This document shows, one piece after another, positions 17,643 to 62,274 of a DNA stretch of 64,000 nt; the first letter of the stretch is position 1; every line of letters begins with the position of its first letter. This DNA comes from Burkholderiales bacterium (GTDB taxonomy: Bacteria > Pseudomonadota > Gammaproteobacteria > Burkholderiales > Ga0077523). A program made the position numbers and the translations under genes. The stretch covers positions 4,865,340-4,929,339 of the forward strand of contig OZ257154.1 of assembly GCA_965279325.1 (NCBI GenBank). Reading direction: 5' to 3'. The notes below the pieces were generated by a model, which ran no database searches, was not told the origin of the DNA, and saw only the letters and a program-made list of their open reading frames with translations.

Positions 17643-17717
17643 CTGGATCGAAGGTGGCTGCGCAGGGTGCGCGAATGCTGGAACGACGTTGCTGGGGGAT
17701 GTTCGGAGCGGAAACGA

Positions 17718-20710: not shown

Positions 20711-20764
20711 GCGCGACGACCGGTCGCGCACACAACAACGAAACCTGATTCGGGGAGGACAGAG

Positions 20765-22816
20765 ATGGCCGCTTACACGACCGAAAGCATCCGAACGGTG
20801 GCCCTGGTCGGTCACGGTGCCGCGGGCAAGACCACACTCGCGGAGGCGCTGCTGCGAGGGTCCGGAACCATCGCGAGCAATGGCAGCGTAGAGCGTGGCA
20901 CCACCGTGAGCGACCATCTGCCGCTCGAGAAGGAATACCGCCACTCGCTGCAATCCTCGGTGCTCCATCTCGAAACCCAGGGGACGCGCGTGCATCTGCT
21001 CGACACGCCCGGATTTCCCGATTTCATCGGCCAGTCCATCGGTGCGCTCGATGCCGTCGAGACCGCGGCGGTGGTGGTGAGCGCGCAGTCCGGCATCGAG
21101 ATGATCACCTCCCGCATGATGCAGTGGGCCGCGAAGCGCAGACTGTGCCGCCTTGTGATCGTCAACAAGATCGACGCCGACAACATCGACTTGCCGGGAC
21201 TGCTGAGCGAGATCCAGGCGACCTTCGGCAAGGAATGCCTGCCCATCAACCTGCCGGCGGGGGGTGGCACACGGGTCGTAGACTGCTTCTTCAATCCCGG
21301 CGGCGAATCGGATTTCCTGTCGGTGGCGCAGGCTCATCGCGCGCTGGTCGACCAGGTGGTGGAGGTCGACGAGGAATTGATGGCGCTGTACCTGGAGCAG
21401 GGCGAGATCGCGCCGGAGCAGTTGCACGCGCCGTTCGAGCAGGCGCTGCGCGACGGCCACCTCATTCCCGTCTGCTTCGTTTCGGCACGCAACGGCGCCG
21501 GCGTCGCGGAGCTGCTCGACGTGTTCGCGAAGTTGCTGCCGAATCCGGCCGAAGGCAACCCGCCGCTGTTCTACAAGGGCGAAGGCGCGGACATCGTCGA
21601 ATTCCGTTCCGATCCCGACCCGGGAAAGCACGTGCTGGCGCACGTCTTCAAGATCGTCATCGACCCTTTCGTCGGCAAGCTGGGCGTGTTCCGCGTGCAC
21701 CAGGGCACGGTCACGCGCGACACGCAGCTCTTCGTCGGCAGCGGCCGCAAGCCTTTCAAGGTCGGGCACCTGTTCCTGTTGCAGGGCAAGGACCACGTCG
21801 AGGTTCCCACCTGCGTCCCGGGCGACATCGCTGCCGTGTCGAAAGTGGAGGAGATCCAGTTCGACTGCGTGCTGCACGATTCCCACGACGAGGATCACAT
21901 CCACATGCGGCCGCTGGAGTTTCCGGTGCCCATGCACGGGCTCGCGATCCAGCCGAAGCGGCGCGGCGAGGAGCAGCGCCTGTCCGATGCCCTGCACAAG
22001 CTGACGGCGGAGGATCCGACCCTGAAGGTCGAACACGATCCGCATCTCAACGAGTCCGTGTTGCGCGGCCTGGGCGAGTTGCATCTGCGTGCGACCATCG
22101 AACGCATGGCCCAGCAGTACAAGGTGGAGATCGAGACGCGGCCGCCGCGCGTGCCCTATCGGGAAACCATCACCGCACCGGCCGAGGGACACAGCCGGCA
22201 CAAGAAGCAGACGGGTGGGGCCGGGCAATTCGGCGAAGTGTTCCTGCGGGTGGAGCCGCTCGGCCGCGGTGAAGGGTTCGAGTTCGTCGACGCGGTGAAA
22301 GGTGGTGTCATTCCCACGCAACTCATTCCGGCCGTGCAGAAAGGTGTGGAGCAGGTGCTCGCCTCGGGACCGTTGGCGGGATTCCCCGTGCAGGATCTGC
22401 GCGTCACGGTTTACGACGGCAAGCATCACCCCGTCGATTCCAAGGAAGTCGCCTTCGTCGCGGCAGGCCGCAAGGCATTCCTCGATGCGTTGGCGAAGGC
22501 CGGTCCGATCGTGCTCGAACCCATCGTCAACGTCGAGGTGTTCTGTCCTGAGGCGAACATGGGTGACATCACCGGCGACCTGTCGGCGCGTCGAGGTCAG
22601 ATCACGGGCACGCGCGCATCGCAGGTATCGACGCTGACGGTAAGCGGCATGGCGCCGCTGGCGGAGTTGAACGGCTACGCCTCACGCCTGAAGGCATTCA
22701 CCGGCGGCCACGGCTCGTACTCGATGGAGCTCAGTCACTACGAGCCCGCACCGCCGACGGTGCAGCAGCAACTCGCGGCCGACTACAAGGCGACGCGGAA
22801 ACAGGAAGAAGACTGA
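20765..22816 (+). CDS. Elongation factor G paralogue (EF-G II-like) with a divergent G domain
   Basis: Five-domain EF-G architecture. G1 is GHGAAGKTT, G3 is DTPGFPDF (Phe at the catalytic His position) and G4 is NKID. Confidence 0.85.
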   Translation: MAAYTTESIRTVALVGHGAAGKTTLAEALLRGSGTIASNGSVERGTTVSDHLPLEKEYRHSLQSSVLHLETQGTRVHLLDTPGFPDFIGQSIGALDAVETAAVVVSAQSGIEMITSRMMQWAAKRRLCRLVIVNKIDADNIDLPGLLSEIQATFGKECLPINLPAGGGTRVVDCFFNPGGESDFLSVAQAHRALVDQVVEVDEELMALYLEQGEIAPEQLHAPFEQALRDGHLIPVCFVSARNGAGVAELLDVFAKLLPNPAEGNPPLFYKGEGADIVEFRSDPDPGKHVLAHVFKIVIDPFVGKLGVFRVHQGTVTRDTQLFVGSGRKPFKVGHLFLLQGKDHVEVPTCVPGDIAAVSKVEEIQFDCVLHDSHDEDHIHMRPLEFPVPMHGLAIQPKRRGEEQRLSDALHKLTAEDPTLKVEHDPHLNESVLRGLGELHLRATIERMAQQYKVEIETRPPRVPYRETITAPAEGHSRHKKQTGGAGQFGEVFLRVEPLGRGEGFEFVDAVKGGVIPTQLIPAVQKGVEQVLASGPLAGFPVQDLRVTVYDGKHHPVDSKEVAFVAAGRKAFLDALAKAGPIVLEPIVNVEVFCPEANMGDITGDLSARRGQITGTRASQVSTLTVSGMAPLAELNGYASRLKAFTGGHGSYSMELSHYEPAPPTVQQQLAADYKATRKQEED

Positions 22817-46370: not shown

Positions 46371-47026
46371 GCCGGATCGAGGTGATCGTTCCAGAGGTCG
46401 ATCAGCACGCGGTCGGCGACCGGTGCCTCGGGACCGAACAGTTCCCGCGCAGCGAATCGCACGGAGTAAAGGTGCTGCGGCTTGTCGCCCAGTTTCGAGC
46501 CGCTCGCATCCGCGAAGATGAAGACGCCATGGACCCTTTCGATCACACCCTGGCGAGCGCGTGCGTAGCGCGGCAGACGCGTATGGCCGAGCGGATGATC
46601 GTTGCGGGTCACGATCGCGTCGCCGACGCGGAAGCGGGGCTCGATGTCGGCCTCCACGCGGAAGTTGCGGCCCGTCGCCGCGATCCTGTCGACGTCGTCC
46701 GGTGCCGGCACGCGCAGCGACGCCGGTGCCGCTCCCGCGGGTACCCCGGAGTCGATTTCCTCCCGCGTCGCGAGCCCGGCCTCGATCAGCAGCGTCTCCA
46801 GGCTGGCCAGCCAGCGTTCGTAGTAGGTCGAAGCGAGATAGTCGGCCGGATCCATGCGCTCCACGGCGTGGCGGCCGATGTCGATGTTCCAGCGGCCGAG
46901 CATGCTCGCGGCGAGGCGCATCGCGAATACGCGGCCTTCCCATGCGTGATGGAACACCGGCTCGTCACCCTCAGGCCCGACGGGTCCGAACCCGTGCATG
47001 CCGCCCATGTCGTGGACGCCGTTCAT
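46367..47026 (-). CDS. Nitrile hydratase beta subunit
   Basis: [16 protein letters not shown]...[15 protein letters not shown]...[10 protein letters not shown]...[20 protein letters not shown] overlap with the alpha subunit gene. Confidence 0.9.
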
Positions 47027-47670
47027 GGGTGGGTGCCTGCGCGGCCGGCGCGCGCCACGCCGATCATCGAATCGCGCGAGACCAGATCGGCGAGTGCATT
47101 CTCGTCCAGTCCTGCAGACCCTTCGGGGCGCTCCGGCAACACCAGATAGCGAATCTCGGCAGTGCTGTCCCAGACCCGCACCTCGACCTTCGGATCCAGC
47201 GTGAGCCCGAACTCCGCGAGGACGCCGCGCGGATCGATCACCGCCCTGGAGCGGTACGCATAGGATTTGTACCAGACGGGTGGCAGACCGAGCACGGGCC
47301 AGGGGTAGCACGAGCACAGCGTGCAGACCACGAGGTTGTGCACCTGCGGCGTGTTCTCCACGACCACCATGTGCTCCCCCTGAAGGCCGGTGTAGCCCAG
47401 TTCCGCGATGGCGGCGGTGGCGTCCTCGAACAGGCGGTGCCGGTAGGCGGGGTCGGTCCACGCACGCGCAACCACCCGGGCACCGTTGCGTGGCCCGATC
47501 CGCGTTTCGTAGGTCTCGACCAGCCGGTCCAGCGTGGCCGGGTCCACCAGGCCCTTGCGCACGAGCAGGGATTCCAGCGCCTTGACGCGCAGCTCCACGT
47601 CGGAGAAGCGCGAGCCCGCGTCGTGATCGTGATGATCATGAGGATGATCGTGGTGGTCTTGGTCGCTCAC
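47023..47670 (-). CDS. Nitrile hydratase alpha subunit, cobalt type, with a His/Asp-rich N-terminal tail
   Basis: The metal-binding claw [17 protein letters not shown] carries the Thr/Tyr variant typical of Co-type enzymes. The N-terminus is [17 protein letters not shown]. Confidence 0.9.
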
Positions 47671-51192: not shown

Positions 51193-52143
51193 TCAGGCAA
51201 CCGCCCGCCGTCGTAGCGGCGGCACATTCGGCGCGATGCGTTCCACCGCCGACGGCAGTGTCGTGAGGACGACCTCCGCCAGCCGCTTGATCGTCTTCTC
51301 GCGCGGATAGCGGTGCCGCCACGCGATGCCGATCACGCGATAAGGTACTGGTGCCTTGAAGGGACGGATCTGCACGAGCCCATCGCGTACCGAGCTCACG
51401 CCCGGCAGCGTCGCGAGCGCGGGCAGCAACGTACAGCCCACGCCCGCCGCCACCATCTGGCGCAGGGTTTCGAGGCTGGTGGCTTTCAGTTCCTCACGAT
51501 CGTGCGACGTCGTGGTGCCGCAGATCGCCAGCGCCTGATCCCGCATGCAGTGTCCTTCCTCGAGCAACAGCACGTTCTGGCCGGCCAGCTCGCCTTCCTC
51601 GATCTCCTGATTGTGTCCGAGCGGATGGCCTGCCGGCAGCGCCATGCAGAACGGCTCGCGAAACAGTTCGATGAATTCGAGGTCGTCTCCGTGAACCGGC
51701 AACGCGAGCAGCAGCGCATCGAGTCGGCCTTGACGCAACCGCTCCAGCAGATTGGCCGTGAGATCCTCGCGCAGGAACAGCCGCAACTTCGGATACGCCT
51801 CACGTATGGTCGGTATCAGGTGAGGTACGAGGTAGGGGCCGAGGGTGGGGATCACGCCCAGGCGCACGGCGCCGTCCATCGGATCGTCTCCCTGGCGCGC
51901 AAGTTGCCGGATCTGTTCCACCACGTCGAGCGCGATCCGCGCGCGTTCGATGATGTGTTCCCCGACCGGGGTCGGCAGCAGGTAGTGCTTGTTGCGTTCG
52001 AACAGCGTGACGCCGAGATAGTCCTCCAGCTTCTTGAGCTGCGTGCTTACGGTGGGTTGCCCCACGTGACAGGCCTCGGCGGCGCGGACGAAACGCCCCT
52101 GGTCCGCGACCGCAACGAGATAACGTAGCTCTTTCAACGTCAT
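51193..52143 (-). CDS. oxyR: LysR-family hydrogen-peroxide-responsive regulator OxyR
   Basis: MTLKELRYLVAVADQGRFVRAAEACHVGQPTVSTQLKKLE (HTH) and LLEEGHCMRDQALAIC, which carries the two redox Cys spaced as in OxyR C199/C208. Confidence 0.85.
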   Translation of the reverse strand: MTLKELRYLVAVADQGRFVRAAEACHVGQPTVSTQLKKLEDYLGVTLFERNKHYLLPTPVGEHIIERARIALDVVEQIRQLARQGDDPMDGAVRLGVIPTLGPYLVPHLIPTIREAYPKLRLFLREDLTANLLERLRQGRLDALLLALPVHGDDLEFIELFREPFCMALPAGHPLGHNQEIEEGELAGQNVLLLEEGHCMRDQALAICGTTTSHDREELKATSLETLRQMVAAGVGCTLLPALATLPGVSSVRDGLVQIRPFKAPVPYRVIGIAWRHRYPREKTIKRLAEVVLTTLPSAVERIAPNVPPLRRRAVA

Positions 52144-52381
52144 GGCTGTCTCCCCCACGTTTCGTGTGTTTTATCTCCGGTCGATTGCGGCTTACCCCAA
52201 GCCTCCCGACAACCCCTCGACCGAATCCTCCGGACGTCGTCCAGCGCGAGCCACCTCCGGTTCGGCCCCCGTGCGACGCCATCGGCAATCTACCCATTCC
52301 CCGCACATGAGGGAATAAGAAAACACGCCTCCATTGACGTTATCGATAGTAGATATCGAGTGCCGCGTTGATACATCCGTT

Positions 52382-52459
52382 TCGATATCCAACATTCAAA
52401 CATTGAATTTGCGGGCCAATGACGATGTTTGGTTCACTAGGGGAGGTGAAGAACGCGTA
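52382..52459. promoter_or_regulatory. AT-rich control region with TCGATA/TATCGA half-sites and an ATTCAA-ACA-TTGAAT palindrome
   Basis: TATCGATA (52441..52448), TCGATA-GTAGA-TATCGA (52443..52459), TCGATATC (52382..52389) and the palindrome at 52394..52408. All lie 30-110 nt upstream of the ATG at 52492. Confidence 0.45.
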
Positions 52460-52491: not shown

Positions 52492-53211
52492 ATGAAGCGC
52501 ACTCTGTCTGCAGCGAACTGTCTGTTTCTCGTCACTTCGTCGTTGCTGGGTGCATCTGCCCAAAGCTATGACGTCGTCACGGTCTCCGGCGGCGGTTCGA
52601 TCGAAGGCAAGGTCATCTACCAGGGTGCCGTGCCGATCAAGAAGATCATTCCGACCAAGGACAAGGAAGTGTGCGGCAGTGCGCGCGACGAGCCGCAGGT
52701 GCGCGTCGGTGGGGACAAGAGTGTCCAGGACGCCGTGGTCTATCTGAAGGAAGTGCCCAAGGGCAAGGCCTGGGGCAAGCAGGATGCGGCTCCGGTGCTG
52801 GATCAGGAGCACTGCCAGTTCCATCCCGCGGTGCAGGTGATCCGCGCCGGCCCCGTCGACGTGCTCAACTCCGATCCCGTGCTGCACAACACGCACGGTT
52901 TCTACGGCAAGCGCACGGCCTTCAATCTCGCGCTGCCCAACAAGGGCGTCAAGATAGCCGCGGATCTGCCCAGGCCGGGGCTGGTGCGAGTCGAATGCGA
53001 CGCGCACGGCTGGATGCTGGCTCACATCTACGTGGCGGACAGCCCCTACTACGCACTCACCGGCAAGGACGGCGGCTTCAGTCTGGCCGACGTGCCGCCC
53101 GGAGACTACACGCTGGTGGTGTCGCAGTACTTCCTCGGCGACCAGGAGATACCGGTGACGGTCAAGGGTGGTGAGACCGTCAAGCTCCCGGTCGAACTCA
53201 AGAAGAAATAG
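52492..53211 (+). CDS. Exported cupredoxin-like protein with a C-terminal CarboxypepD_reg-like beta-sandwich
   Basis: Signal peptide MKRTLSAANCLFLVTSSLLGASA. Candidate type-1 Cu ligands are H132/H135 (LHNTHG), C169, H172 and M175 (ECDAHGWM). C-terminus GFSLADVPPGDYTLVV. An AAGGGGAG Shine-Dalgarno lies upstream. Confidence 0.6.
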   Translation: MKRTLSAANCLFLVTSSLLGASAQSYDVVTVSGGGSIEGKVIYQGAVPIKKIIPTKDKEVCGSARDEPQVRVGGDKSVQDAVVYLKEVPKGKAWGKQDAAPVLDQEHCQFHPAVQVIRAGPVDVLNSDPVLHNTHGFYGKRTAFNLALPNKGVKIAADLPRPGLVRVECDAHGWMLAHIYVADSPYYALTGKDGGFSLADVPPGDYTLVVSQYFLGDQEIPVTVKGGETVKLPVELKKK

Positions 53212-53263
53212 TGCCGGCGGCGACCGGCGTAGCACCTACCGCAGCTCAAAGGAGGACATTCAG

Positions 53264-54388
53264 ATGAGCGAACGTGAACGGATGCGACGCGAGATGGACC
53301 GCATGCTGCGGCCGGCGGGAGAACATCCCGACGCCTGTACCTCGATCACCCGCAGGACTTTCCTGCACAAGTCGGCCGTGCTCGGCACCGGCGTGGCCGC
53401 GTGTGGCCTGTTCCCGAGCTTGAGCACCATCGATCTCGCCTTCGGCGCGGACGGACCGGCCTTCAAGTTCGCGTGGATTTCCGATACGCATCTCTATCCC
53501 AAGGAGCTGAATTCCCGCTTCGTGGAGAAGACGGTTCGTGCGGTGAAGGAAGTGCAGGCGATGAATCCGCCGGCCGATTTCCTCGTCTTCGGCGGCGACA
53601 TCGCCCAGCTCGGCGACCCGGTGGAGTTGCGCCTGGGGGCGGAGCTGCTGAAGGAGATCAAGATCAAGAAGGTCTACATCCCGGGCGAGCACGACTGGTA
53701 CCTGGACATGGGCGCGACCTGGAACAAGATGTTCGGCGCGTCGCCCTGGACGTTCGATCACAAGGGCGTGCGCTTCATCGGACTCGACACCGTCAGTCGC
53801 GCAGAGGATTTCTGGACATCGAGAAAGATGTCGCCGAAGGAGCGCATGGGCCACATGGCGACCCTCGACGGTACGCTGGGCGGCGCCTGGGCCGCGGTCG
53901 GTCCCGAGCAGCTCAAGTGGCTCAACAGCACGCTGGCGAGCTGGCCCAAGGACAAGCCGGTGATCATCTTCACCCACAACCCGCTGTGGGAGTACTACCC
54001 GCCGTGGAACTTCTGGGTGCGCGACTGGCGCGAGACGCAGGAGATCCTGAAGCCCTTCGCCAACGTCACCAACATCCATGGTCACGTGCACCAGCCGCTC
54101 TACAACGAGATCGGGAAAGTGCGCTCGATCGGGATGCTCGCGACCTCCTGGCCGTGGCCCTATGCGCCCGAAGGTGCTCCGCCTTTGACCAAGCCGATGA
54201 TCCGCGTCGACCCGGGTGATCATTTCGACGGCGTGGGCTGGGGCAAGTTGAGCATGTCGGGTGCGGCGAAGATCGACGGCGAATACATGATGTGGCGCAA
54301 GGAGGTGTTCGCTTCGGCGGACGTGGATTCCGGCACGGGCGACAACCGCAACCAGGTGCTGACCCCGCGGATCGCGGACCGTCCATGA
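53264..54388 (+). CDS. Tat-exported calcineurin-like metallophosphoesterase
   Basis: Twin-arginine motif TRRTFLHKSAVLG. Metallophosphoesterase motifs are ISDTH, FGGDI, PGEHDW (Glu where GNHD/E usually has Asn), FTHNP and GHVH. An AAGGAGG Shine-Dalgarno lies upstream. Confidence 0.75.
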   Translation: MSERERMRREMDRMLRPAGEHPDACTSITRRTFLHKSAVLGTGVAACGLFPSLSTIDLAFGADGPAFKFAWISDTHLYPKELNSRFVEKTVRAVKEVQAMNPPADFLVFGGDIAQLGDPVELRLGAELLKEIKIKKVYIPGEHDWYLDMGATWNKMFGASPWTFDHKGVRFIGLDTVSRAEDFWTSRKMSPKERMGHMATLDGTLGGAWAAVGPEQLKWLNSTLASWPKDKPVIIFTHNPLWEYYPPWNFWVRDWRETQEILKPFANVTNIHGHVHQPLYNEIGKVRSIGMLATSWPWPYAPEGAPPLTKPMIRVDPGDHFDGVGWGKLSMSGAAKIDGEYMMWRKEVFASADVDSGTGDNRNQVLTPRIADRP

Positions 54389-54426
54389 CGAAACGCAGCG
54401 CAACCAGGTCAAGAGGAGGGGACAAG

Positions 54427-54885
54427 ATGACTCGCAAATGGTTTCGCTATTCGCTCATCGCGGCAGGCATCGCGGCGTTGATCGTCGGCGGCGGCAGCGC
54501 GCACCTGGCGTTTGCCCACAAGGAGAAGCATTCGAGCGAACAGTTGCAGGCCTTCGAGGACGTGTTCATCGAACAGGTGAAGACCGGCGACCTGCTGTTC
54601 CATGGCGACGGAGCCACGGAGAAACGGCTCGGCGTGAAGCTCTCCAACACGGGAATGGCCTGTGCGATGTGCCATCCGTTCACGTCGGATACGCATCCGC
54701 ACGAGTTCCCGAAGTTCCAGGAACAGATGAACGAGTTCGCGGCGCTGCGCAACATGATCAACTGGTGCATCGAGAAGCCGAACGAGGGCGAGAAGATCGA
54801 TCCGGACGGCGAGGCGATGAAGGCGCTGGAAGCCTACATCTACTGGTCGAACCGCAACTCGAAGTTGGACCCCGGGCGGCACTGA
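54427..54885 (+). CDS. Membrane-anchored or exported monohaem cytochrome c
   Basis: N-terminal hydrophobic segment. Single CAMCH (C79, C82, H83) followed by FPKFQEQMNEFAALRNMINWCIEKP (C114). An AGAGGAGGGG Shine-Dalgarno lies upstream. Confidence 0.8.
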   Translation: MTRKWFRYSLIAAGIAALIVGGGSAHLAFAHKEKHSSEQLQAFEDVFIEQVKTGDLLFHGDGATEKRLGVKLSNTGMACAMCHPFTSDTHPHEFPKFQEQMNEFAALRNMINWCIEKPNEGEKIDPDGEAMKALEAYIYWSNRNSKLDPGRH

Positions 54886-54889
54886 TCCG

Positions 54890-54925
54890 TCGATTCCCTC
54901 CGTCGCTCAGGCGGTGGAGGGAATC
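54890..54925 (+). promoter_or_regulatory. Strong intercistronic stem-loop between the cytochrome c gene and ccoN
   Basis: CGATTCCCTCC-(14 nt)-GGAGGGAATCG, an 11-bp perfect stem starting 5 nt after the stop. No U tract follows. Confidence 0.5.
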
Positions 54926-55034
54926 GGTTGGTGACCGGGAGGATGCGTCCATGACCCGCTCGGCGTGCAGCCGGCGCGGTGGGGACGCTCGCACCAGACG
55001 ACGAACAGGAAATCGCCAGTGAGGAGCCCAGACG

Positions 55035-56471
55035 ATGGCCAGTGCAGGTGAAGCCCAAGCCGCGTTCCCGGATCTCGATTCGCTGATCGACCGGGAACTC
55101 ATCCTGAAGTGGCTGTACTGGGGTCTGTTCTGGCTGATGTTCACGCCCACGATCGGCGTGACCATCTCGACGCTGTTCAACTATCCCGACTATCTCGGCA
55201 GCTCGCCGTACCTCACGTTCGGGCGGTTGCGGCCGATGCACGTGAACGGCGTGATCTTCGGCGCCTTCTCCACCCTGTTCATCGGGCTGTGCTACTACCT
55301 GCTGCCGCGCCTGTGCGGCGTGCGCATCTGGAACGGTCACTGGGGGCACTGGCTGGTGTGGGTGTGGAACCTCGGGCTGGCCGCGGGGATGCTCTCGCTG
55401 TTCCTCGGCTACAACCAGGGCCTCGAGGCCGGCGAGTTTCCGCTGCCGATCGACGCGCTGATCTTCGTCGTGCTCACCATCGTCACGGTGCAGTTCCTCG
55501 TGACCATCGCCAGGCGCCGCGAGCCGCAGCTCTACGTGGCGCTGTGGTACCTCATCGGTGCCTTCGTCTGGACGGTGATCAACCTGATCCTGGGCAGCTT
55601 CATCCTTCCCTACTCGTTCACCGGGATCAACAGCGCGGCGTTCCACGGCCTGTTCATCCACTACATCGTCGGCCTGTGGATCACGCCGGCGGGTTACGTG
55701 CTGATCTACTACTTCCTCCCGGCCAGCGTCAGGAACCCCGTGTACAGCCACAAACTGTCCCTCGTCGGTTTCTGGTCGCTGGCTCTGTTCTATCCGTTCG
55801 TGGGCATCCACCACTACCTGTTCAGTCCCATCGCGGACTGGGCGGAGACGCTCGCGATCATCACCTCCATGCTGCTGATCGTGCCGGTGTGGACCGTGTT
55901 GCAGAACTTCTTCGGAACGATGATTGGCCGATGGCACACCTTCGGGACCAACCTGACGGCGAAGTTCATGATCATGGGCTCGCTCATGTACCTCGTCGGC
56001 TGCTTCCAGGGCTCGACCGAGGCATTGCGCTCGATCCAGGAACCCACCCACTTCAGCGATTTCGTCATCTCGCATTCGCACCTGACGGTGTTCGGCACCT
56101 TCGTCGTGTGGGCCATCGGCGGCACGGTCTACGTGATTCCCAAGCTGGCAGGCCGACCGTTGTGGTCGTTCAAGATGGGCAACTGGTCCTTCTGGCTCAT
56201 CACCTGCGGCATCTCGCTCATGGGACTGGATCTGACCATGGCGGGTCTGCAGCAGGGCTACATGCTGATGGCCGGCGCGGAGTGGCTCGACACGCTCGTG
56301 GCGATCAGGCCCTACTGGCTGATACGAACCGTCGCCGGCGCCAGCATGGACATCGGCATGTCGTTGCTGGTGATCAACCTGATGCGCACCGTGCTTTCCG
56401 CGTCCAGTGCGGCAGCGGCGGTCTCGCGACCTTCGCCCGGTAACGCTGCAACGCAGGGAGCGGCGTCATGA
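55035..56471 (+). CDS. ccoN: cbb3-type (C-family) haem-copper oxidase subunit I, divergent
   Basis: Twelve-helix protein colinear with CcoN. H69 (haem b), H209 (CuB), Y253 six residues before H259/H260 (cross-link Tyr and CuB), H347/H349 (b3 and b). The helix-VI signature reads FHGLFIHYIVGL. Confidence 0.85.
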   Translation: MASAGEAQAAFPDLDSLIDRELILKWLYWGLFWLMFTPTIGVTISTLFNYPDYLGSSPYLTFGRLRPMHVNGVIFGAFSTLFIGLCYYLLPRLCGVRIWNGHWGHWLVWVWNLGLAAGMLSLFLGYNQGLEAGEFPLPIDALIFVVLTIVTVQFLVTIARRREPQLYVALWYLIGAFVWTVINLILGSFILPYSFTGINSAAFHGLFIHYIVGLWITPAGYVLIYYFLPASVRNPVYSHKLSLVGFWSLALFYPFVGIHHYLFSPIADWAETLAIITSMLLIVPVWTVLQNFFGTMIGRWHTFGTNLTAKFMIMGSLMYLVGCFQGSTEALRSIQEPTHFSDFVISHSHLTVFGTFVVWAIGGTVYVIPKLAGRPLWSFKMGNWSFWLITCGISLMGLDLTMAGLQQGYMLMAGAEWLDTLVAIRPYWLIRTVAGASMDIGMSLLVINLMRTVLSASSAAAAVSRPSPGNAATQGAAS

Positions 56472-58186
56472 GCAGCAACCGATACGGTCTTCGTTTTTAC
56501 GCCCTGGTCGGCGGCTTCTTCTGCATCACGCTGGCCGCGTTCGTCCAGGGCGTTCTTCCCATGCTCGAGCCGCAGTCGCGCACGACCAAGGTCACGAAGG
56601 TCGTCCGCAACGACCTGGGCGAGCTGAAGTGGATGGAGCATCAGGCGAGCGACTACACGGCGCTCGAGCAGCGCGGCCGTCACGTCTACACGCGCGAAGG
56701 CTGCTGGTATTGCCACTCGCAGTACGTGCGGCCGGTGACGGGCGAGACGCGGCGCTGGGGGCCGGTGACGCAGGCGGGCGAGTACGCCTTCGACATGCCC
56801 CACCTGTTCTCCACGCGGCGCATCGGTCCCGACCTGTCGCGCGTCGGGCTCAAGTACAGCGATGCCTGGCACCTCGCGCACTTCTGGAATCCGCGCATGC
56901 TCTCGCCGGACTCGATCATGCCGCGCTTCCGGGCGCTGTTCGAAGGACCCTACCAGGCGAAGGTCGCGAAGGATGCGAGCGGCAACGTCACGCTGGAGCA
57001 GACACCGGCCACGCAGAAGCTGTTCGACTTCAAGAGCGACAAGCAGATCCTCCTCACGCCCAATGCCGACGGCCTGCTGTTCGTGCCGGAGCGCGGCCGG
57101 TATCCGGTCATCTTCACGCCGAACAAGGAATTCACCGGCGACACGGTGACCCTGGTGGCCGACAGCGAGGACCTGAAGGCGGTGATCGCCTATCTGCAGA
57201 AGCTCGGCACCAACCGGGGCAAGTGGCGTGATCGCTTCGAGCCGCAGTTGATGGAGGCGTCCCAGGTCACGGTACCGCGCTCGGAAGAATGGACCGCCTA
57301 CGGCAAGAATGTCTACGAGCGCCGCTGTCTCGGTTGCCACGGCGTGAACGGCGACGGCAACGGCCCGGCGGCCGCCTTCATGCAGCACGACCGGCCGCGC
57401 AATTTCAGCCTCGGCGTATTCAAGTTCCGGCTCACCCCTTCGGGCTCGCTGCCCGATGACGGCGACCTGCTGCGCACCATCACGCGCGGCGTGCGCGGCA
57501 CCTCGATGCCCACGTGGCACGAACTCCAGGAGAAGGACCGGCTCGCGGTGATCCAGTACATCAAGTATCACCTCGCTGCCGATCGCAGCGATGCGAGCAA
57601 GCCGTACCTGTATTTCGTGGAGGAGCCGGCGAAGGCACCGATCTTCATCGGCCAGCCGCCCAAGCCGTCGATGGAACTGGTGAAGCGCGGCCACGACGTA
57701 TGGAAGGACGCCAAGTGCTGGGAGTGCCATGGCGACGGCGGCAAGGGCGACGGCCAGAAAGCGGCGGGGCTCAAGGACGATCTCGGTTTCCCGATTCCGC
57801 CTGCCAATCTGACCACCGGGCAATTCAAGTCCGGCGCGAGCGTGAAGGACATCTTCCGCACCATGTCGACCGGATTGTCCGGGACGCCGATGCCCTCGTT
57901 CAGCGATTCACTGTCGGAGGCCGATCGATGGGCTCTGTCCTACTACGTGCTGTCGTTGTCGGCGTTTACCGATCCGCTGACCGGCGAGAAGATGCAGATC
58001 TCCGACAAGGATCGTGCGGCGCTCAACGATCCGGCCGTGACGGCAGCGGAGTCCCACTACGCCTACAAGTCGCAGACGGAGGTGCCGCCCACGCTGTTCG
58101 CGGGTGCGGCCTGGGCCCGCAAGCACGGCTTCGATTTTGCCGTGGCTCGGCCGTTGGCGGATGTCACGGATCCACGTCCAAGATAG
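56468..58186 (+). CDS. ccoO: CcoO (monohaem subunit II) fused to a C-terminal dihaem cytochrome c domain
   Basis: N-terminal TM segment, then GCWYCHSQYVRP...RRIGPDLSRVG...WHLAHFWNPR...SIMP...AVIAYLQKLG (CcoO). Two further CXXCH motifs follow (CLGCH 287-291, CWECH 417-421). 572 aa; ATGA overlap with ccoN. Confidence 0.85.
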   Translation: MSSNRYGLRFYALVGGFFCITLAAFVQGVLPMLEPQSRTTKVTKVVRNDLGELKWMEHQASDYTALEQRGRHVYTREGCWYCHSQYVRPVTGETRRWGPVTQAGEYAFDMPHLFSTRRIGPDLSRVGLKYSDAWHLAHFWNPRMLSPDSIMPRFRALFEGPYQAKVAKDASGNVTLEQTPATQKLFDFKSDKQILLTPNADGLLFVPERGRYPVIFTPNKEFTGDTVTLVADSEDLKAVIAYLQKLGTNRGKWRDRFEPQLMEASQVTVPRSEEWTAYGKNVYERRCLGCHGVNGDGNGPAAAFMQHDRPRNFSLGVFKFRLTPSGSLPDDGDLLRTITRGVRGTSMPTWHELQEKDRLAVIQYIKYHLAADRSDASKPYLYFVEEPAKAPIFIGQPPKPSMELVKRGHDVWKDAKCWECHGDGGKGDGQKAAGLKDDLGFPIPPANLTTGQFKSGASVKDIFRTMSTGLSGTPMPSFSDSLSEADRWALSYYVLSLSAFTDPLTGEKMQISDKDRAALNDPAVTAAESHYAYKSQTEVPPTLFAGAAWARKHGFDFAVARPLADVTDPRPR

Positions 58187-58195
58187 GGAGCAGCG

Positions 58196-58351
58196 ATGGC
58201 GGAACTCACCCTGATCCAGTTCTTCGTAGCCCTGTGCATGGGCCTGGGCGCGGTGTGCCTGTTCATCTGGGGCGTGCTGTCCGGTTCGTTCAACGATGTC
58301 GAGGCCATCAAGTTGAGAGCCTATCGCACGGAGGTCAACGAGGATGAGTGA
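58196..58351 (+). CDS. ccoS: CcoS/FixS-like cbb3 oxidase maturation protein (51 aa; not in the ORF track)
   Basis: Hand translation gives MAELTLIQFFVALCMGLGAVCLFIWGVLSGSFNDVEAIKLRAYRTEVNEDE. One TM helix followed by W..SG.F.D.E, as in CcoS. An AGGGAG Shine-Dalgarno lies upstream. Confidence 0.65.
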   Translation: MAELTLIQFFVALCMGLGAVCLFIWGVLSGSFNDVEAIKLRAYRTEVNEDE

Positions 58352-58553
58352 CGACACGCACCAGGCAGGGAGCCCTGGCCACGAGGACATTCCTCACCAT
58401 CAGCAGGTCGAGAGCTACGGCGGCGGAGACGTGCAGGCGCGCCACGGGCGCATCAACGGCTGGCTGCTCGTGGTCTACGCGATCATGTGGGTGTGGGCGC
58501 TCTACTACGGCATCACCTACTGGGGCGGGCTCGGGCCCGGGCTCGATTTCTAG
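58344..58553 (+). CDS. Small single-pass membrane protein (69 aa)
   Basis: His-rich N-terminus (HQAGSPGHEDIPHHQQ), then the TM helix INGWLLVVYAIMWVWALYYGITYW. The ATG overlaps the ccoS-like stop region. Confidence 0.5.
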   Translation: MSDDTHQAGSPGHEDIPHHQQVESYGGGDVQARHGRINGWLLVVYAIMWVWALYYGITYWGGLGPGLDF

Positions 58554-58574
58554 CCGGCGAGGAGGGCGAAGACG

Positions 58575-58682
58575 ATGGAAAACCACATGGGAGCCAAGGT
58601 CGTGCTGGCGATCGCGATCGTGAACCTGATCTTCCTGTTCAGCGAGCTGGCGCTCAACGTGTTCGGCGTGGCGTTGTCGTAG
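58575..58682 (+). CDS. Tiny hydrophobic ORF (35 aa; not in the ORF track)
   Basis: Hand translation gives MENHMGAKVVLAIAIVNLIFLFSELALNVFGVALS. A GAGGAGGG Shine-Dalgarno lies 6-8 nt upstream. Confidence 0.45.
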   Translation: MENHMGAKVVLAIAIVNLIFLFSELALNVFGVALS

Positions 58683-58707
58683 GAAGCGGCGTTCGAGAGG
58701 GGAAATC

Positions 58708-58800
58708 ATGACCACGTCTGAAAGCATCGCGTTCTGGATCTTCGTCGTCATGACGATGACGTTCTTCCTCTGGGTCTGCTACCTCGCGTTCAGGAAGTAG
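58708..58800 (+). CDS. Tiny hydrophobic ORF (30 aa), CcoQ-like in shape (not in the ORF track)
   Basis: Hand translation gives MTTSESIAFWIFVVMTMTFFLWVCYLAFRK. A GAGAGGGG Shine-Dalgarno lies upstream. Single TM helix ending in a W..Y..(R/K)K-like tail. Confidence 0.45.
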   Translation: MTTSESIAFWIFVVMTMTFFLWVCYLAFRK

Positions 58801-58828
58801 CGCGGCACCGGTACCCGGGAAGGCAAAC

Positions 58829-59575
58829 GTGCTCCAGTACCTGCTGGTGTTTCTCGCGGGCCTGGCGGGGAGCGTCCACTGTATCGGCATGTGCGGTGGC
58901 TTCGCCTGCGCGCTGGGCAGCGACCCGCGCGGCGCCGCCGCCAGTCTGCGCCGCCACCTGATCTACAACTTCGGCCGGGCCACGACCTACTGCTTCATCG
59001 GTGCGATCGTGGGATTCCTGGGATTGCTGCTGGTGGGTCACCAGGGCGAGAACACGACGGCGAGCCTGGCGCAACGTCTCCTGGCACTGATCTCCGGCCT
59101 GCTCATCATCTTCGTGGGCTTGCAGTTTCTCGGGGTTTCATTCGCGAGGCGGTGGCGGCTCGGCGACGCCGGCGCGCTGCGAATCACCAGCGCGCTATCC
59201 CGTTTGCTCAAAGCGCCCGGCAGCGGTGCGCCACTCGTGCTCGGCGTGCTCAATGGCTTCCTGCCCTGTCCGCTCGTGTACGCCTTTGCCGCGCAGGCGG
59301 CCGGCACGGGCGGCCCGCTGCCGGGTTTTCTCACCATGGCGGCGTTCAGCCTGGGGACCTTCCCCGCGATGCTCGCGATGGGTGGGGCGGGCCTCTGGAT
59401 GCGTTCCCGAAGCGCAACCGCCGTTTCCGTCCGTGCGCGAGGTGGCACCGTGTTGCTGCGGGCTGATCGTCGCCAACAGATCCTCCGCGTTGCCGGCGGT
59501 CTCATCATCGTGCTCGGCCTCGTCACGGTCGGTCGCGGCCTGATGCCCATGAGCGCCCATCTGCACGGGCCATGA
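58829..59575 (+). CDS. HCxxMCGG membrane protein (TauE/SafE- or DsbD_2-like), commonly linked to cbb3 or metal maturation
   Basis: GSVHCIGMCGGFACALG near the N-terminus, six hydrophobic helices, LNGFLPCPLVYAF. GTG start; ATGA overlap with the ATPase gene. Confidence 0.7.
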   Translation: MLQYLLVFLAGLAGSVHCIGMCGGFACALGSDPRGAAASLRRHLIYNFGRATTYCFIGAIVGFLGLLLVGHQGENTTASLAQRLLALISGLLIIFVGLQFLGVSFARRWRLGDAGALRITSALSRLLKAPGSGAPLVLGVLNGFLPCPLVYAFAAQAAGTGGPLPGFLTMAAFSLGTFPAMLAMGGAGLWMRSRSATAVSVRARGGTVLLRADRRQQILRVAGGLIIVLGLVTVGRGLMPMSAHLHGP

Positions 59576-61683
59576 GCGAAACCTGCAGCCATTGCCTGCT
59601 GCCGCTCGGTCGTCTGGCGCAACGCCGGGAGGTCAGCGGCGAGCCGTACCAGTTCTGCTGCTACGGCTGTTGCCTCGCCTACCAGGTGCACCACGGCGAA
59701 CGGGACGAGCCAGAAGCAGCGGCGCTGTTGATTCGACTGGGCGCGGGTGCGTTCCTGGCCATGAACATCATGCTGTTCAGCGTGCTGCTGTACTCCGGCA
59801 CTTTCGGTCCGGGTGACGGTCTGGCCGTTCGGATGGTGCATTGGCTGCTGTGGATCCTGGCCACTCCGCTGGTCGTCGTGCTGGGCGGTCCGTTCCTCGC
59901 TGGTGCGTGGCTGGCGGCCCGGCAGCGTCAGGTGGGCACCGACACCCTGGTCAGTGTTGCCGTACTGGCGGCCTATGGCTACTCGGCCTGGCAGGTCGTC
60001 TCCGGCGCCTCGGCGGTGTACTTCGATACCGTCACCATGGTGCTCGTCCTTTTCGTGCTCGGACGTTATCTGGAGGCGCGCGCGCGGGTGCAGGCTGCAC
60101 GCAGCCTCGCGCCGATGCTCGCAGCCGAACGCGCGCAGGTACGCGTGGTCGAGGACGGCGTCGAGACCCAGCGGCAGGTCACCGGTGTCCCGGCGGGTGC
60201 CGTGGTTCGCATCCTTCCCGGCGAGCGTATCCCCGTGGACGGCGTGGTGCTGGAGGGTCGTTCCGAGTGCGACGAAGCCATCCTCACGGGTCAGGCCGAG
60301 CGCGAGCCCAAGATGCCATCTGCGCGTGTCCACGCAGGCAGCATCAACGGGGCGGGGCAGTTGGTGGTGCGCGCTACGGTCGCAGGCTCGGCCACGCGCT
60401 GGATCCGGATCAGCCGGCAGGTGCAACAGGCGCTGGCGCGCAAATCGGCGCTCGGCAACGCGGTGGATCGCCTGGCGGCGACCTTTCTTCCGCTGGTGCT
60501 GCTGGTCGCGATCGGGACGGTGGCGTTCTGGAGCATGACAGTGCCCCTGGATCAGGCGCTGCTCATCGGGTTGGCGGTGCTGGTGGTCGCGTGTCCCTGT
60601 TCGCTCGGGCTGGCGGCGTCCCTGGCCACCACGCTGGCCATCGCGCAGGCAGCCCAGCGCGGCATCCTGGTGCGAGGCGGCGGCGTCCTGGAGCGACTGG
60701 CGCTAGTGCGGGCGGTCGCTTTCGACAAGACCGGGACCCTGACCCAGGGGCGACCGCAGGTGACCGCTGTTGCGCTCGATGCAGCGACCGAACGCGTGGC
60801 ACTGGCCCGTGCTTCAGCGCTGGCGATGACTTCCGATCACCCGCTGTCGAAAGCGATCGCCCGGTTCTGCCATGACAGTGGTGCAGACACGGTTCCCGCA
60901 TCGGGAGCAACGACACTCCCTGGTGCCGGTGTTGGCGGAACGGTGGACGGCGAGCCCCTGGTGCTGGGGTCCGCTGCGTTCATGGCCGCGCAAGGCCTGG
61001 AATTGCCCCGCGCATGGAGGACACCCGGCGACGGCACGGACACGCACGTATTCCTCGCGTGGGCCGGCAAGGTCCGTGCACGGTTCAGTCTCGCCGACCA
61101 GCCCATTCCCGAAGCGAGTGGCGTGACGGCGACCCTGGGCAAGCGTGGAATGCATCTGATCGTCCTGAGCGGCGATCGCGAGGCCGCGGTGGCGAGTACG
61201 GCGCGAGCGCTGGGCATTCCCGACTGGCGCTCGGGGCTCCTGCCCGAGGCGAAGGTGGCGGCCATCGCGGCACTGACCGAACATCATGGTCCCGTCGCGA
61301 TGGTGGGCGACGGGCTGAACGACGGCCCGGTGCTGGCCGCCGCATCGGTGGGTATCGCAGTAGGTGGCGCCGCCGACCTGGCGCGCGAGAGCGCGGACAT
61401 CGTCCTGCCGGAGCGGGCGCTCGAAAGTCTGCCCTGGGTGCTGGATCTGGCGGCGCGGGCGCGCCGATCCGTACTGGCCAACATCGCCTGGGCGCTCGGG
61501 TACAACTCGATCGCACTGACGCTGGCCGTTGCGGGGGTGTTGCAACCAGTCATCGCGGCAGCCCTCATGGCGGGTTCCAGCCTGCTGGTCGTAGCGAGGT
61601 CGTTGCGCTCCAATCGCGCCGGGGCCGATCGCTCCACTGCAGGCAATTCGCTCGGCATGGTTGCGGTGCCGGCGCGGCCCTGA
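59572..61683 (+). CDS. ccoI: Copper-translocating P1B-type ATPase, CcoI/FixI-like
   Basis: N-terminal Cys-rich domain CSHC...FCCYGCCLAY, TM CPC motif (VVACPCSLGLA), DKTGTLT, GDGLNDGP. Confidence 0.85.
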   Translation: MSETCSHCLLPLGRLAQRREVSGEPYQFCCYGCCLAYQVHHGERDEPEAAALLIRLGAGAFLAMNIMLFSVLLYSGTFGPGDGLAVRMVHWLLWILATPLVVVLGGPFLAGAWLAARQRQVGTDTLVSVAVLAAYGYSAWQVVSGASAVYFDTVTMVLVLFVLGRYLEARARVQAARSLAPMLAAERAQVRVVEDGVETQRQVTGVPAGAVVRILPGERIPVDGVVLEGRSECDEAILTGQAEREPKMPSARVHAGSINGAGQLVVRATVAGSATRWIRISRQVQQALARKSALGNAVDRLAATFLPLVLLVAIGTVAFWSMTVPLDQALLIGLAVLVVACPCSLGLAASLATTLAIAQAAQRGILVRGGGVLERLALVRAVAFDKTGTLTQGRPQVTAVALDAATERVALARASALAMTSDHPLSKAIARFCHDSGADTVPASGATTLPGAGVGGTVDGEPLVLGSAAFMAAQGLELPRAWRTPGDGTDTHVFLAWAGKVRARFSLADQPIPEASGVTATLGKRGMHLIVLSGDREAAVASTARALGIPDWRSGLLPEAKVAAIAALTEHHGPVAMVGDGLNDGPVLAAASVGIAVGGAADLARESADIVLPERALESLPWVLDLAARARRSVLANIAWALGYNSIALTLAVAGVLQPVIAAALMAGSSLLVVARSLRSNRAGADRSTAGNSLGMVAVPARP

Positions 61684-61686
61684 GCC

Positions 61687-62274
61687 ATGACAAGAAGCAG
61701 ATTCGCGGTGCTGGCCCTGCTGTTCTTCGGTCTGGTTTCGACCGTATCCGCCGACACACGCAGTCCACAGCGCGTGACGCGCGTCAACGGCGGCTGGCCG
61801 CTCGACGCCTTCAAGCTGGTTGACCAGAACGGCCGGAAGTTCACGCACGAGCAGCTTCGGGGGCAGTGGACCCTGGTGCTCATGGGCGATACCCGCTGCG
61901 GTGAACGCTGCGCGGCACCGTTGTCTGCGCTCACGGGCATGTACGAGCGGATCGCGCGCACGCAGAAGCTGCAGACCACGCAGGTGCTGTTCGTTTCCGT
62001 TGCCGGCGACTCGCCGGAGCAACTACGGCAATACCTCGCGCCGTTCGATCAGCACTTCCTCGGCGTTACCGGCACGCCGAAGACCCTGACGAAGCTGGCG
62101 GAAGACCTGGGGATCAGCGAATCGCTACCCGCTTCGCTCGTCCTGCCGAACGGCGACTACCCCGGCGTGCTGTCGGTGGTGGATCCCGAAGGTGTCGTGT
62201 GGGGCCAGTACCTGCCGCCGTTCGATGTAAAGCTCCTTACCGCCCGGTACTTGAAGACGCGCGTCGGACGGTAG
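61687..62274 (+). CDS. SCO1/SenC-family copper chaperone
   Basis: Signal/anchor MTRSRFAVLALLFFGLVS. Thioredoxin-like fold with the CxxxC motif TRCGERC. Starts 3 nt after the ATPase stop. Confidence 0.8.
   Translation: MTRSRFAVLALLFFGLVSTVSADTRSPQRVTRVNGGWPLDAFKLVDQNGRKFTHEQLRGQWTLVLMGDTRCGERCAAPLSALTGMYERIARTQKLQTTQVLFVSVAGDSPEQLRQYLAPFDQHFLGVTGTPKTLTKLAEDLGISESLPASLVLPNGDYPGVLSVVDPEGVVWGQYLPPFDVKLLTARYLKTRVGR

Follow-up and report, generated by a model that had tools for sequence, protein, structure and literature searches.

A divergent cbb3-type oxidase cluster with its own maturation genes and an apparent periplasmic electron-input line in a Burkholderiales bacterium

A window of 64,000 nucleotides (nt) from a Burkholderiales bacterium (contig OZ257154.1, positions 4,865,340 to 4,929,339 of the forward strand) was analysed for a cluster of 12 co-directional genes on its plus strand (52492-62274), which encodes a cbb3-type haem-copper oxidase, a set of putative maturation factors and three periplasmic proteins, here called P1, P2 and P3 (Table 1). 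On balance we consider it probable that these genes make up one conserved respiratory module, comprised of a divergent cbb3-type core, its own maturation set and a dedicated periplasmic electron-input line. As judged from sequence, the core is an O2 reductase of the C-family (cbb3-type) which has diverged deeply but is complete, its catalysis being predicted. A single three-haem subunit, in which CcoO is joined to a dihaem domain of the Kustc0457 type, would stand in for the CcoP subunit. P2 and P3 would together oxidise the substrate, as one of three or more units that can replace each other, and the blue copper centre of P1 would pass the electrons on to the dihaem part of the CcoO fusion. 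The whole path would run from the substrate to P2/P3, to the copper of P1, to the dihaem c domain, to the CcoO haem c, to haem b, to the haem b3-CuB centre and finally to O2. The comparison of loci described below indicates that the oxidase is probably modular and substrate-dedicated.

Domains were identified by scanning the proteins with the Pfam and NCBIfam models, equivalog cut-offs being given below for each model. Every domain identity which an earlier note on this DNA, made from the sequence alone, had named in the cluster (for P1, that of CarboxypepD_reg) was confirmed by these scans, as was the absence of ccoG and ccoH, no FixG or FixH domain being matched in the locus. FixS and the Cu-ATPase were the only members of the ccoGHIS set to be matched at the locus, and PF12156 (ATPase-cat_bd) was not detected in the locus proteins. 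The same note had counted fourteen open reading frames (ORFs); 12 genes were counted here, which is also the number of items in its own list. Its description of short gaps and ATGA overlaps was largely upheld, with intergenic gaps of -8 to +52 nt, a single exception of 149 nt between P3 and ccoN, and ATGA overlaps joining ccoN to ccoO (56468-56471) and the DsbD_2 gene to the ATPase gene (59572-59575). The ATGA overlap of P2 and P3 at 54385, however, is probably not real. The P3 frame is open from 54385, and the start at 54427 is more likely because it has a strong Shine-Dalgarno sequence (AGAGGAGGGG) and gives a protein of 152 amino acids (aa), the length of the orthologues. A GGAG-type ribosome-binding site lies 5' of most genes, the three tiny ORFs included. 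The twelve window proteins were then compared by tblastn with 80 loci, of which 71 had flanks sufficient to judge the front end and 56 to judge the downstream genes; the locus counts given below refer to these two sets.

The catalytic subunit CcoN could be aligned over its full length with the solved cbb3 subunits 9g6b_A (E 5e-58) and 3mk7_A, and is ~31% identical to CcoN of the Pseudomonas stutzeri type. Residues H69, H209, Y253, H259/H260 and H347/H349 coincide with the ligands of the haems and of CuB and with the Tyr of helix VII in the P. stutzeri type, in agreement with the earlier view that every redox ligand is kept. The His ligands (two to the low-spin haem b, one to haem b3 and three to CuB) were invariant in 13 members of the clade, and Y253 lies six residues ahead of H259, which equals the Y251-H257 spacing of P. 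stutzeri. Alignment with the P. stutzeri type also confirmed the altered helix-VI signature that had been pointed out, with FHGLFIHYIVGL in place of (Q)WWYGHNAVGF and hence HY in place of HN. This HY pair after the CuB His was limited, in the alignment, to the clade of the window protein and to two further proteins, P0121 and P0126. CcoN scored 235.5 against the ccoN equivalog TIGR00780 (cut-off 583) and CcoO scored 134 against the ccoO equivalog TIGR00781 (cut-off 201); because both lie below the cut-offs, CcoN can be assigned to the C-family at superfamily level only. The best NCBIfam model for CcoN was PRK14485 (subunit I/II fusion), with 259 bits against a cut-off of 1080.

In a neighbour-joining tree built from 81 C-family sequences of full length, the window CcoN fell into a monophyletic clade (100/100), with P0121 as its sister (98/100) and P0126 next to these (91/100); the canonical proteobacterial CcoN proteins were placed elsewhere. 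The window protein is thus found outside the characterised clades, and the proposal of a distinct C-family lineage is borne out by this separate position together with the identity of ~31% and the TIGR00780 score of 235 against 583. A search of 1.84 billion cluster representatives returned its own 50%-identity cluster, followed by a 971-aa protein (55%), one protein at 42% and a long tail below 40%. The sister protein P0121 (locus L090, 8001-10916) comprises CcoN, CcoO and the dihaem domain in one polypeptide of 971 aa with 55% identity, and neither front-end genes nor maturation genes were found nearby in L090.

The second subunit, of 572 aa, carries three haem motifs of the CxxCH type, namely CWYCH (position 79), CLGCH and CWECH. 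The CcoO chains 3mk7_B and 6xkw_o match its residues 61-250, which include the FixO domain (PF02433), and Kustc0457 (PDB 6h5l_B) matches residues 273-497 (E 9e-55), a dihaem domain of 225 residues. No separate dihaem CcoP subunit is encoded at the locus, and the fused domain scored 57.6 against the ccoP model TIGR00782 (cut-off 180). The best NCBIfam model for the fusion was PRK14486 (subunit II/cytochrome c fusion), with 186 bits against a cut-off of 447; since this model exists and matches best, a CcoO-cytochrome c fusion is of a recognised kind. The fusion was present in 56 of the 56 loci, in independent gene calls and in the PGAP annotation, so that it is real and not the product of a frameshift or of the assembly, as might have been suspected. 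Two loci of uncultured Alphaproteobacteria (L045, L051) have the ccoO-dihaem gene upstream of ccoN (O-N order), and no P1-like gene was detected there. The short membrane protein P7, encoded a little further downstream in all 56 loci, is a candidate small subunit and may have a CcoQ-like role. The possibility that any of the three small ORFs is CcoQ or CcoM was rejected, as no FixQ or other family match was obtained.

The earlier proposal that this lineage has its own copper-delivery set is supported, CcoS, the DsbD_2 protein and the Cu-ATPase each being present in 54 of the 56 loci. The DsbD_2 protein, P10, is a presumed maturation factor; its orthologue directly precedes the ATPase gene and is named "sulfite exporter TauE/SafE family protein" by PGAP. 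The ATPase, P11, which also matches the E1-E2_ATPase and Hydrolase models of Pfam, is called CcoI-like here, the role being read from gene context. A gene for the copper chaperone SCO occurs somewhere in 24 of the 56 loci, at times divergent and upstream.

The neighbourhood comparison showed that the three upstream genes and the fused CcoO co-occur with this CcoN clade. P1 was present next to CcoN in 68 of the 71 loci, P1, P2 and P3 together in 49 and P1 alone in 19, and P2 and P3 were never found apart where the sequence was complete. The trio is therefore co-conserved with the oxidase, and the counts include two loci (L043, L056) in which it is inverted and still adjacent. The same gene order was found in dozens of unrelated contexts in Beta-, Gamma- and Alphaproteobacteria and SAR324; because the flanking genes differ between genomes, the cluster itself appears to be the travelling unit. 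More than 1,700 database proteins matched CcoN at E ≤ 1e-10, the top 120 being 75-89% identical, and a relative is encoded in 301 GTDB species genomes. The best matches (87-91%) were from metagenome-assembled genomes (MAGs) of Burkholderiales and from Pseudothauera. Among the hosts are Cupriavidus necator A5-1, C. oxalaticus, Ralstonia pickettii, Thiocapsa sp. KS1 and Pseudothauera rhizosphaerae; further hosts are Bradyrhizobium, Mesorhizobium and Phyllobacterium, as well as MAGs of SAR324, Acidobacteriota and many Gamma- and Alphaproteobacteria. The cluster also occurs on large rhizobial plasmids of Sinorhizobium meliloti, S. fredii, Rhizobium gallicum and Phyllobacterium zundukense. In rhizobia, hemA (5-aminolevulinate synthase, eight loci) and an extra groEL (seven loci) recur upstream of the cluster, as on the P. 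zundukense plasmid (L084, 1496-4467), which hints at a co-transferred island for haem supply and folding on symbiosis-type replicons.

P1, the most constant member of the front end, contains a type-1 copper ligand set of the amicyanin type (H132-N133...C169-x2-H172-x2-M175) which was invariant in 36 orthologues of 36-71% identity, along with two additional invariant Cys. A profile search of the PDB gave, over residues 108-181, a match to the Nitrosopumilus type-1 Cu protein 5fc9 (E 1.3e-3) and weaker ones to amicyanins (E 0.014-0.5), to the cupredoxin domain of nitrite reductase and to plastocyanin; some orthologues have been named "plastocyanin" by JGI. With this ligand pattern, P1 looks like a constant electron shuttle or adaptor to the oxidase and not like a part of the substrate-oxidising enzyme.

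P3 belongs with the SoxA/TsdA-type cytochromes, SoxA and TsdA being its only relatives that have been characterised. It has one CxxCH motif, CAMCH at residues 93-97, and a Cys, C128, that was invariant in 29 orthologues (numbering from the 54385 start). Profile matches were obtained to SoxA (1h31, E 8e-6; 2c1d, E 1e-3) and to the N-terminal domain of TsdA (4wq7, E 5.6e-3). As C128 aligns with the haem-ligand residues Cys114 of SoxA 1h31 and Cys96 of TsdA 4wq7, the haem of P3 is likely to be His/Cys-ligated. A full TsdA or SoxA was considered and rejected, P3 being a single domain with scores under the cut-offs (28.5 against the SoxA equivalog TIGR04484, cut-off 110).

P2 has the metallophosphoesterase motifs DxH, GD, GEHD, H and GHxH, in which Glu replaces the Asn of GNHD in every orthologue; the metal motifs and the twin-arginine signal (RRxF) are invariant among the orthologues. 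Scores against the CpdA and SpdA equivalogs were low (47, cut-off 225, and 24, cut-off 400), and P2 was rejected as a SoxB orthologue because it has no 5'-nucleotidase C-terminal domain and GpdQ is nearer. Distant paralogues of P2 (29-41% identity), found by tblastn against plasmids, retain GEHD in the four cases examined and the twin-arginine signal in three of them, the start of the Methylocystis protein being uncertain. A small cupredoxin gene lies directly 3' of the paralogue, with overlapping or abutting frames, in Ralstonia solanacearum, Cupriavidus campinensis and Caballeronia; two of these cupredoxins have a CuA-type motif (CxxxCxxxHxxM) and one a type-1 motif (CxxHxxM). Genes for an extracytoplasmic function (ECF) sigma factor and anti-sigma factor (Ralstonia, PGAP) or for an ECF sigma factor (Caballeronia, Pfam) are found upstream of the pair in the two genomes covered for this, and bfd and ferritin genes occur near the Ralstonia pair. 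CuA and type-1 copper sites are electron-transfer centres, and the recurrent pairing with such cupredoxins suggests that the metallophosphoesterase subfamily of P2 may act with a redox partner.

The 19 loci with P1 alone are not bare, as other genes precede the oxidase in them. Five of these loci, from Methyloligellaceae, Geminicoccaceae, Hyphomicrobiales, Burkholderiales and one unclassified proteobacterium, encode in order ECF sigma/anti-sigma factors, a Tat-exported Rieske protein AioB, AioA, a dihaem cytochrome c, a P1-like protein, Cox11/CtaG, DUF4382 and ccoN. The identity of AioA in the five loci is supported by a score of 473 bits against TIGR02693 (cut-off 359), a model which is itself titled "arsenate reductase (azurin)" in NCBIfam. 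In the periplasm, arsenite oxidase serves as a donor enzyme with azurin or cytochrome c as its electron acceptor. Because AioBA takes exactly the position of P2/P3 while P1 is kept, the exchange provides the strongest comparative argument that P2 and P3 would be the donor enzyme and P1 the common shuttle. The suggestion of the earlier note that the first three genes encode a dedicated periplasmic electron-donating enzyme is strengthened in this way as regards P2 and P3; it does not extend to P1, which resembles a shuttle more than a part of the enzyme. A third front end was found in ~10 soil gammaproteobacterial loci, where a conserved 500-aa protein is followed by a pair of dihaem cytochromes c and then by a P1-like protein. 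The C-terminus of the 500-aa protein ends in F, and it is possibly an outer-membrane barrel; a Cyc2-type cytochrome-porin was rejected, there being no CxxCH motif and no family match. The free dihaem cytochromes c of these alternative front ends share 36-43% identity with the fused CcoO domain, which belongs to the same family.

As to the substrate of P2/P3, a soxZ gene and/or a gene of the flavocytochrome-c sulfide dehydrogenase (FCC) type was found within 10 kb of the cluster in 11 loci, most of which have soxY too and some of which also carry a small cytochrome c gene. All 11 loci carry P2 and 10 carry P2 and P3 (in L056 one tblastn comparison showed only P2); no sox or FCC genes were found near loci without P2/P3. 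According to PGAP, these genes are convergent to the cluster in Bradyrhizobium, Mesorhizobium, Phyllobacterium and other Alphaproteobacteria. In the SAR324 locus L033, genes for a SoxY-like protein, SoxZ (91.5 bits, cut-off 76), a redoxin, a cytochrome c and a flavoprotein lie directly 3' of the ATPase gene on the same strand. SoxB is likewise exported by the Tat pathway, and as a dimetal enzyme it falls into the metallophosphoesterase superfamily, as does P2. Together with the family of P3 and the soxYZ/FCC neighbours, this makes sulfur the most plausible guess for the donor; that the substrate is reduced inorganic sulfur (thiosulfate or SoxYZ-bound sulfur) we regard as a reasonable possibility that falls short of probable.

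Upstream of the cluster lies the divergent gene of an OxyR-like regulator, whose best NCBIfam match was OxyR (NF008361, 278.6 bits, cut-off 329); the family ranked next scored 197, and the next non-OxyR family was HcaR (149). An OxyR-like gene adjoins the cluster divergently in ~15 betaproteobacterial loci, and in Betaproteobacteria the cluster appears to be under the control of this regulator. The conserved block in the shared intergenic region is a likely binding region for the regulator and putative cluster promoter. The dyad block is followed in the same region by ACATTGAATTTG. No sigma-70 consensus was found in the block, and neither candidate promoter region contains an FNR/FixK box, unlike canonical cbb3 operons. 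A promoter and terminator scan gave nothing above chance and was uninformative on the P3/ccoN junction.

A number of observations weigh against the reading of P1-P3 as an electron-input line. P1 gave no match to a Pfam cupredoxin model, and its AlphaFold2 model, built with 23-24 close homologues, had a predicted local distance difference test (pLDDT) value of 57, with the cupredoxin region below 50. Because of these two results the cupredoxin fold of P1 is deduced from the motif and the profile matches only. The closest solved relative of P2 is the phosphodiesterase GpdQ, at an E-value of only 1e-3, and the AlphaFold2 model of P2 (23-24 close homologues) had a pLDDT of 47. Foldseek searches recovered only the C-terminal beta-sandwich with the P1 model and generic metallophosphoesterase folds (template modelling score ~0.3) with the P2 model, and neither was used as evidence. 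The likeness of P3 is to the N-terminal haem domain of SoxA and not to the catalytic domain, no SoxX-like partner is encoded at the locus, and the Arg residues which we take to line the substrate pocket of TsdA are not aligned with Arg in P3. SoxY, SoxZ and FCC gave no tblastn match in the 64-kb window, and the sox association holds for 11 of ~49 loci only, which are not phylogenetically independent. The gap of 149 nt before ccoN could hold a separate promoter. The OxyR-like regulator, together with the ECF sigma factors beside the paralogue pairs, also fits a role in stress or detoxification.

It is this regulator, which would suit peroxide or persulfide sensing, that keeps alive the explanation that P1-P3 form a periplasmic oxidant-reducing or stress system (with P2, for example, reducing H2O2 or another oxidant by means of electrons from the cupredoxin) under joint regulation with an oxidase induced by stress. 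The OxyR-like protein retains both redox Cys, and a conserved dyad block is found in the promoter region common to its gene and the cluster. The metallophosphoesterase-cupredoxin pairs are not accompanied by an oxidase; they are preceded by ECF sigma/anti-sigma genes and, in Ralstonia, lie close to bfd and ferritin. Such a role nevertheless seems unlikely, given that an OxyR-like gene adjoins the cluster in no more than ~15 loci, all betaproteobacterial, that AioBA, a known electron donor enzyme, is found at the same position in sister arrangements and that the soxYZ/FCC neighbours point to substrate oxidation. A His/Cys haem is also not known to serve as a peroxidase partner, which counts against the stress explanation. 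P1-P3 might otherwise be assembly or maturation factors replacing CcoG, CcoH and PCuAC, with P1 as a copper chaperone and P2/P3 in cofactor insertion or copper redox control. The absence of ccoG and ccoH from the locus, the nearly constant adjacency of P1 and ccoN, the Cox11/CtaG homologue that one variant has between its P1-like gene and ccoN and the frequent presence of SCO nearby are all consistent with this. We hold it to be quite improbable, however, as H-N...C-x2-H-x2-M is the type-1 pattern of electron transfer and not that of PCuAC or Cox11, P2/P3 are dispensable in 19 loci with the same oxidase and maturation genes, and the CuA-type cupredoxins with which P2 paralogues are paired lie far from any oxidase.

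The remaining two explanations concern the oxidase itself and its link to the upstream genes. Nitric oxide (NO) reductases arose repeatedly from the C branch (PMC11214002), and the low ccoN equivalog score (235 against 583) and the change of HN to HY in helix VI could be taken to mean that the CcoN-like enzyme is an NO reductase or another C-branch derivative and not an O2 reductase. The match to NorB was weak (E 3e-5), however, and CcoN retains both the three His of CuB and the Tyr of helix VII, a residue that marks O2 reductases and is missing from the NO reductase families (PMC11214002). The Cu-ATPase, SCO and CcoS genes fit a CuB and not an FeB centre. The retained Tyr and the presence of copper-delivery genes argue for an O2 reductase, and an NO reductase is in our view very improbable. 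That P1-P3 lie beside the oxidase by chance or in this strain only, as two unrelated operons, is hardly tenable: the 149-nt gap between P3 and ccoN would allow it and the terminator and promoter calls are uninformative either way, but it is contradicted by synteny, the same order being found in 49 of the 71 loci, which have unrelated flanks and come from Beta-, Gamma- and Alphaproteobacteria and SAR324, and on rhizobial plasmids as well.

A bolder version of the electron-input reading, which is put forward tentatively and which we think somewhat unlikely as a whole, is that the GEHD metallophosphoesterases represent a new class of periplasmic redox enzyme whose dimetal centre would exchange electrons with cupredoxins. 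The donor oxidised by P2 and P3 would then be inorganic: a sulfur oxyanion, sulfur bound to SoxYZ or, as the more exotic options, phosphite or Fe(II). Its electrons would pass via P1 to a private cbb3-type oxidase, and the cluster would represent a new plug-in chemolithotrophic pathway in hundreds of soil, marine and symbiotic bacteria.

Table 1. Genes and other features of the oxidase cluster and related loci. Coordinates are those of the window unless a locus is named; TM, transmembrane.
Feature	Coordinates	Strand	Evidence and remarks
Divergent LysR-type regulator, OxyR-like, EEGHCxRDQAxxxC motif with both redox Cys	51193..52158	-	HTH_1 and LysR_substrate (Pfam)
Conserved intergenic block with GATA/TATC dyads, cattgacgTTATCGATAgtaGATATCGA ... 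tTTCGATATCCAacATTCaAACATTGAATTTG	52332..52412	unassigned	Alignment of 14 orthologous intergenic regions
P1, Sec-exported, cupredoxin-like domain and C-terminal transthyretin/CarboxypepD_reg beta-sandwich	52492..53211	+	CarboxypepD_reg 32.5 bits
P2, Tat-exported metallophosphoesterase-fold protein, predicted dimetal	53264..54388	+	Metallophos PF00149 44 bits, cut-off 21.5
P3, periplasmic monohaem cytochrome c, SoxA/TsdA type	54427..54885	+	SoxA-TsdA_cyt-c PF21342 35.2 bits, cut-off 27
CcoN, catalytic subunit I, divergent C-family haem-copper oxidase	55035..56471	+	COX1 244 bits
CcoO (TM anchor and monohaem FixO) fused to C-terminal Kuenenia Kustc0457-type dihaem domain	56468..58186	+	FixO 156 bits and two Cytochrom_C/CBB3
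CcoS/FixS-like maturation peptide, 51 aa	58196..58351	+	FixS 25.4 bits, cut-off 23.1; 54/56 loci
P7, single-TM protein, 69 aa, no Pfam/NCBIfam family	58344..58553	+	56/56 loci; Shine-Dalgarno upstream
P8, TM peptide, 35 aa	58575..58682	+	Shine-Dalgarno AGGAGGG; tblastn matches in 14/56 loci; no family match
P9, TM peptide, 30 aa	58708..58800	+	Shine-Dalgarno-like GAGAGGGG; tblastn matches in 24/56 loci; no significant family match
P10, DsbD_2/TauE-SafE-like polytopic membrane protein, HCxxMCGG in TM1	58829..59575	+	DsbD_2 147 bits; 54/56 loci
P11, CcoI-like Cu(I) P1B-type ATPase, CPC motif, Cys-rich N-terminus without HMA	59572..61683	+	TIGR01511 440 bits, cut-off 397; 54/56 loci
P12, SCO1/SenC copper chaperone	61687..62274	+	SCO1-SenC 72.6 bits
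Aio-type loci	L052 1983-11419 (Hyphomicrobiales MAG), plus L039, L044, L049, L063		Ends in ccoN/ccoO-dihaem/ccoS/DsbD_2/ATPase set
Third front end	L058 5875-9855 and ~nine similar gammaproteobacterial loci		500-aa protein without Pfam/NCBIfam match
Stand-alone metallophosphoesterase-cupredoxin pairs	L087 5881-7190 (R. solanacearum megaplasmid), L088 4927-7165 (C. campinensis), L089 5629-7193 (Caballeronia)		

The surroundings of the cluster in the window are those of an ordinary chromosome, with genes for parE/parC-like topoisomerase IV, prolyl-tRNA synthetase, a TctC-family receptor, a CoA-transferase and an acyl-CoA dehydrogenase, and the GC content is ~65% throughout. An apparently unrelated gene for a nitrile hydratase alpha subunit (47023-47670, minus strand; PF02979, E 9e-91) lies ~5 kb upstream of the cluster. 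An ORF of 1,439 codons on the minus strand (18110-22429) has a coding-like GC content at third codon positions (0.74) and no Pfam match at E ≤ 1e-4, and overlaps the end of a long plus-strand ORF (16353-18341); its status as a gene is uncertain.

C-family oxidases are usually regarded as a compact and well-understood family (PMC6431628), and are used as markers of microaerobic respiration in genome surveys. No description of this clade was found in the literature searched, where C. necator H16 is given one cbb3 oxidase only. While the cbb3-type oxidase is known in kind, its subunit architecture and maturation set in this cluster, and an input by metallophosphoesterase, cupredoxin and His/Cys cytochrome, were not described before in that literature. 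The clade is abundant and yet annotated merely as "cbb3", from which it differs in subunits, maturation, regulation and apparently electron input. Its interchangeable front ends (arsenite oxidase, the 500-aa protein, and the metallophosphoesterase with the His/Cys cytochrome) suggest a general design in which a private oxidase would be coupled to varied donor enzymes via a common blue-copper adaptor. Should the metallophosphoesterase be a donor enzyme, this would be new chemistry for that fold. These ideas are testable, since the module occurs in cultivable and genetically tractable bacteria, namely C. necator, C. oxalaticus, R. pickettii, Bradyrhizobium, Mesorhizobium, Phyllobacterium, Thiocapsa sp. 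KS1 and strains of Sinorhizobium meliloti and S. fredii.

When compared with the canonical cbb3 oxidases encoded by ccoNOQP and ccoGHIS (P. stutzeri 3mk7/5djq, Rhodobacter capsulatus 6xkw), the cluster shares the six His and the Tyr, an anchored monohaem CcoO, a total of three c-haems and the nearby genes for CcoS and a CcoI-like Cu-ATPase. It differs in having no separate CcoP, no recognisable CcoQ, no ccoG or ccoH and no FNR/FixK box, and in the addition of DsbD_2, SCO and the periplasmic front end. The fusion variants PRK14485 and PRK14486 are the best NCBIfam models for CcoN and the CcoO fusion, both far under their cut-offs; the PRK14486 model has 294 positions, whereas the window fusion has 572 aa and two extra haems.

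Among systems with a dedicated donor, the closest in layout are the AioBA systems of the five clade loci, in which AioBA, a dihaem cytochrome c and a P1-like protein stand ahead of the same oxidase and make up a complete chain from substrate to O2; the window has no Aio genes and carries P2 and P3 instead. The Sox/Tsd systems resemble the front end in that P3 is of the same cytochrome family as SoxA and TsdA, with the haem-ligand Cys aligned, and soxYZ genes are neighbours in 11 loci. P3, however, is a single domain without a SoxX partner or the second domain of TsdA, and P2 differs from SoxB in lacking the 5'-nucleotidase C-terminal domain and in being closer to the GpdQ type, its likeness to SoxB in Foldseek being limited to weak matches. 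The rus operon of Acidithiobacillus ferrooxidans (cyc2-cyc1-coxBACD-rus) likewise serves a dedicated lithotrophic donor by combining a terminal oxidase with cytochromes c of its own and a blue copper protein, but its oxidase is of the A-family (aa3) and not of the C-family, its donor module is different and it has no sequence relation to P1-P3. Lastly, among solved structures Kustc0457 (6h5l_B) comes closest to the C-terminal 225 residues of the CcoO fusion, and is kin to the free dihaem cytochromes of the other front ends; Kustc0457 is the soluble partner of an HAO-like octahaem enzyme, whereas the domain in the window is tethered to CcoO.

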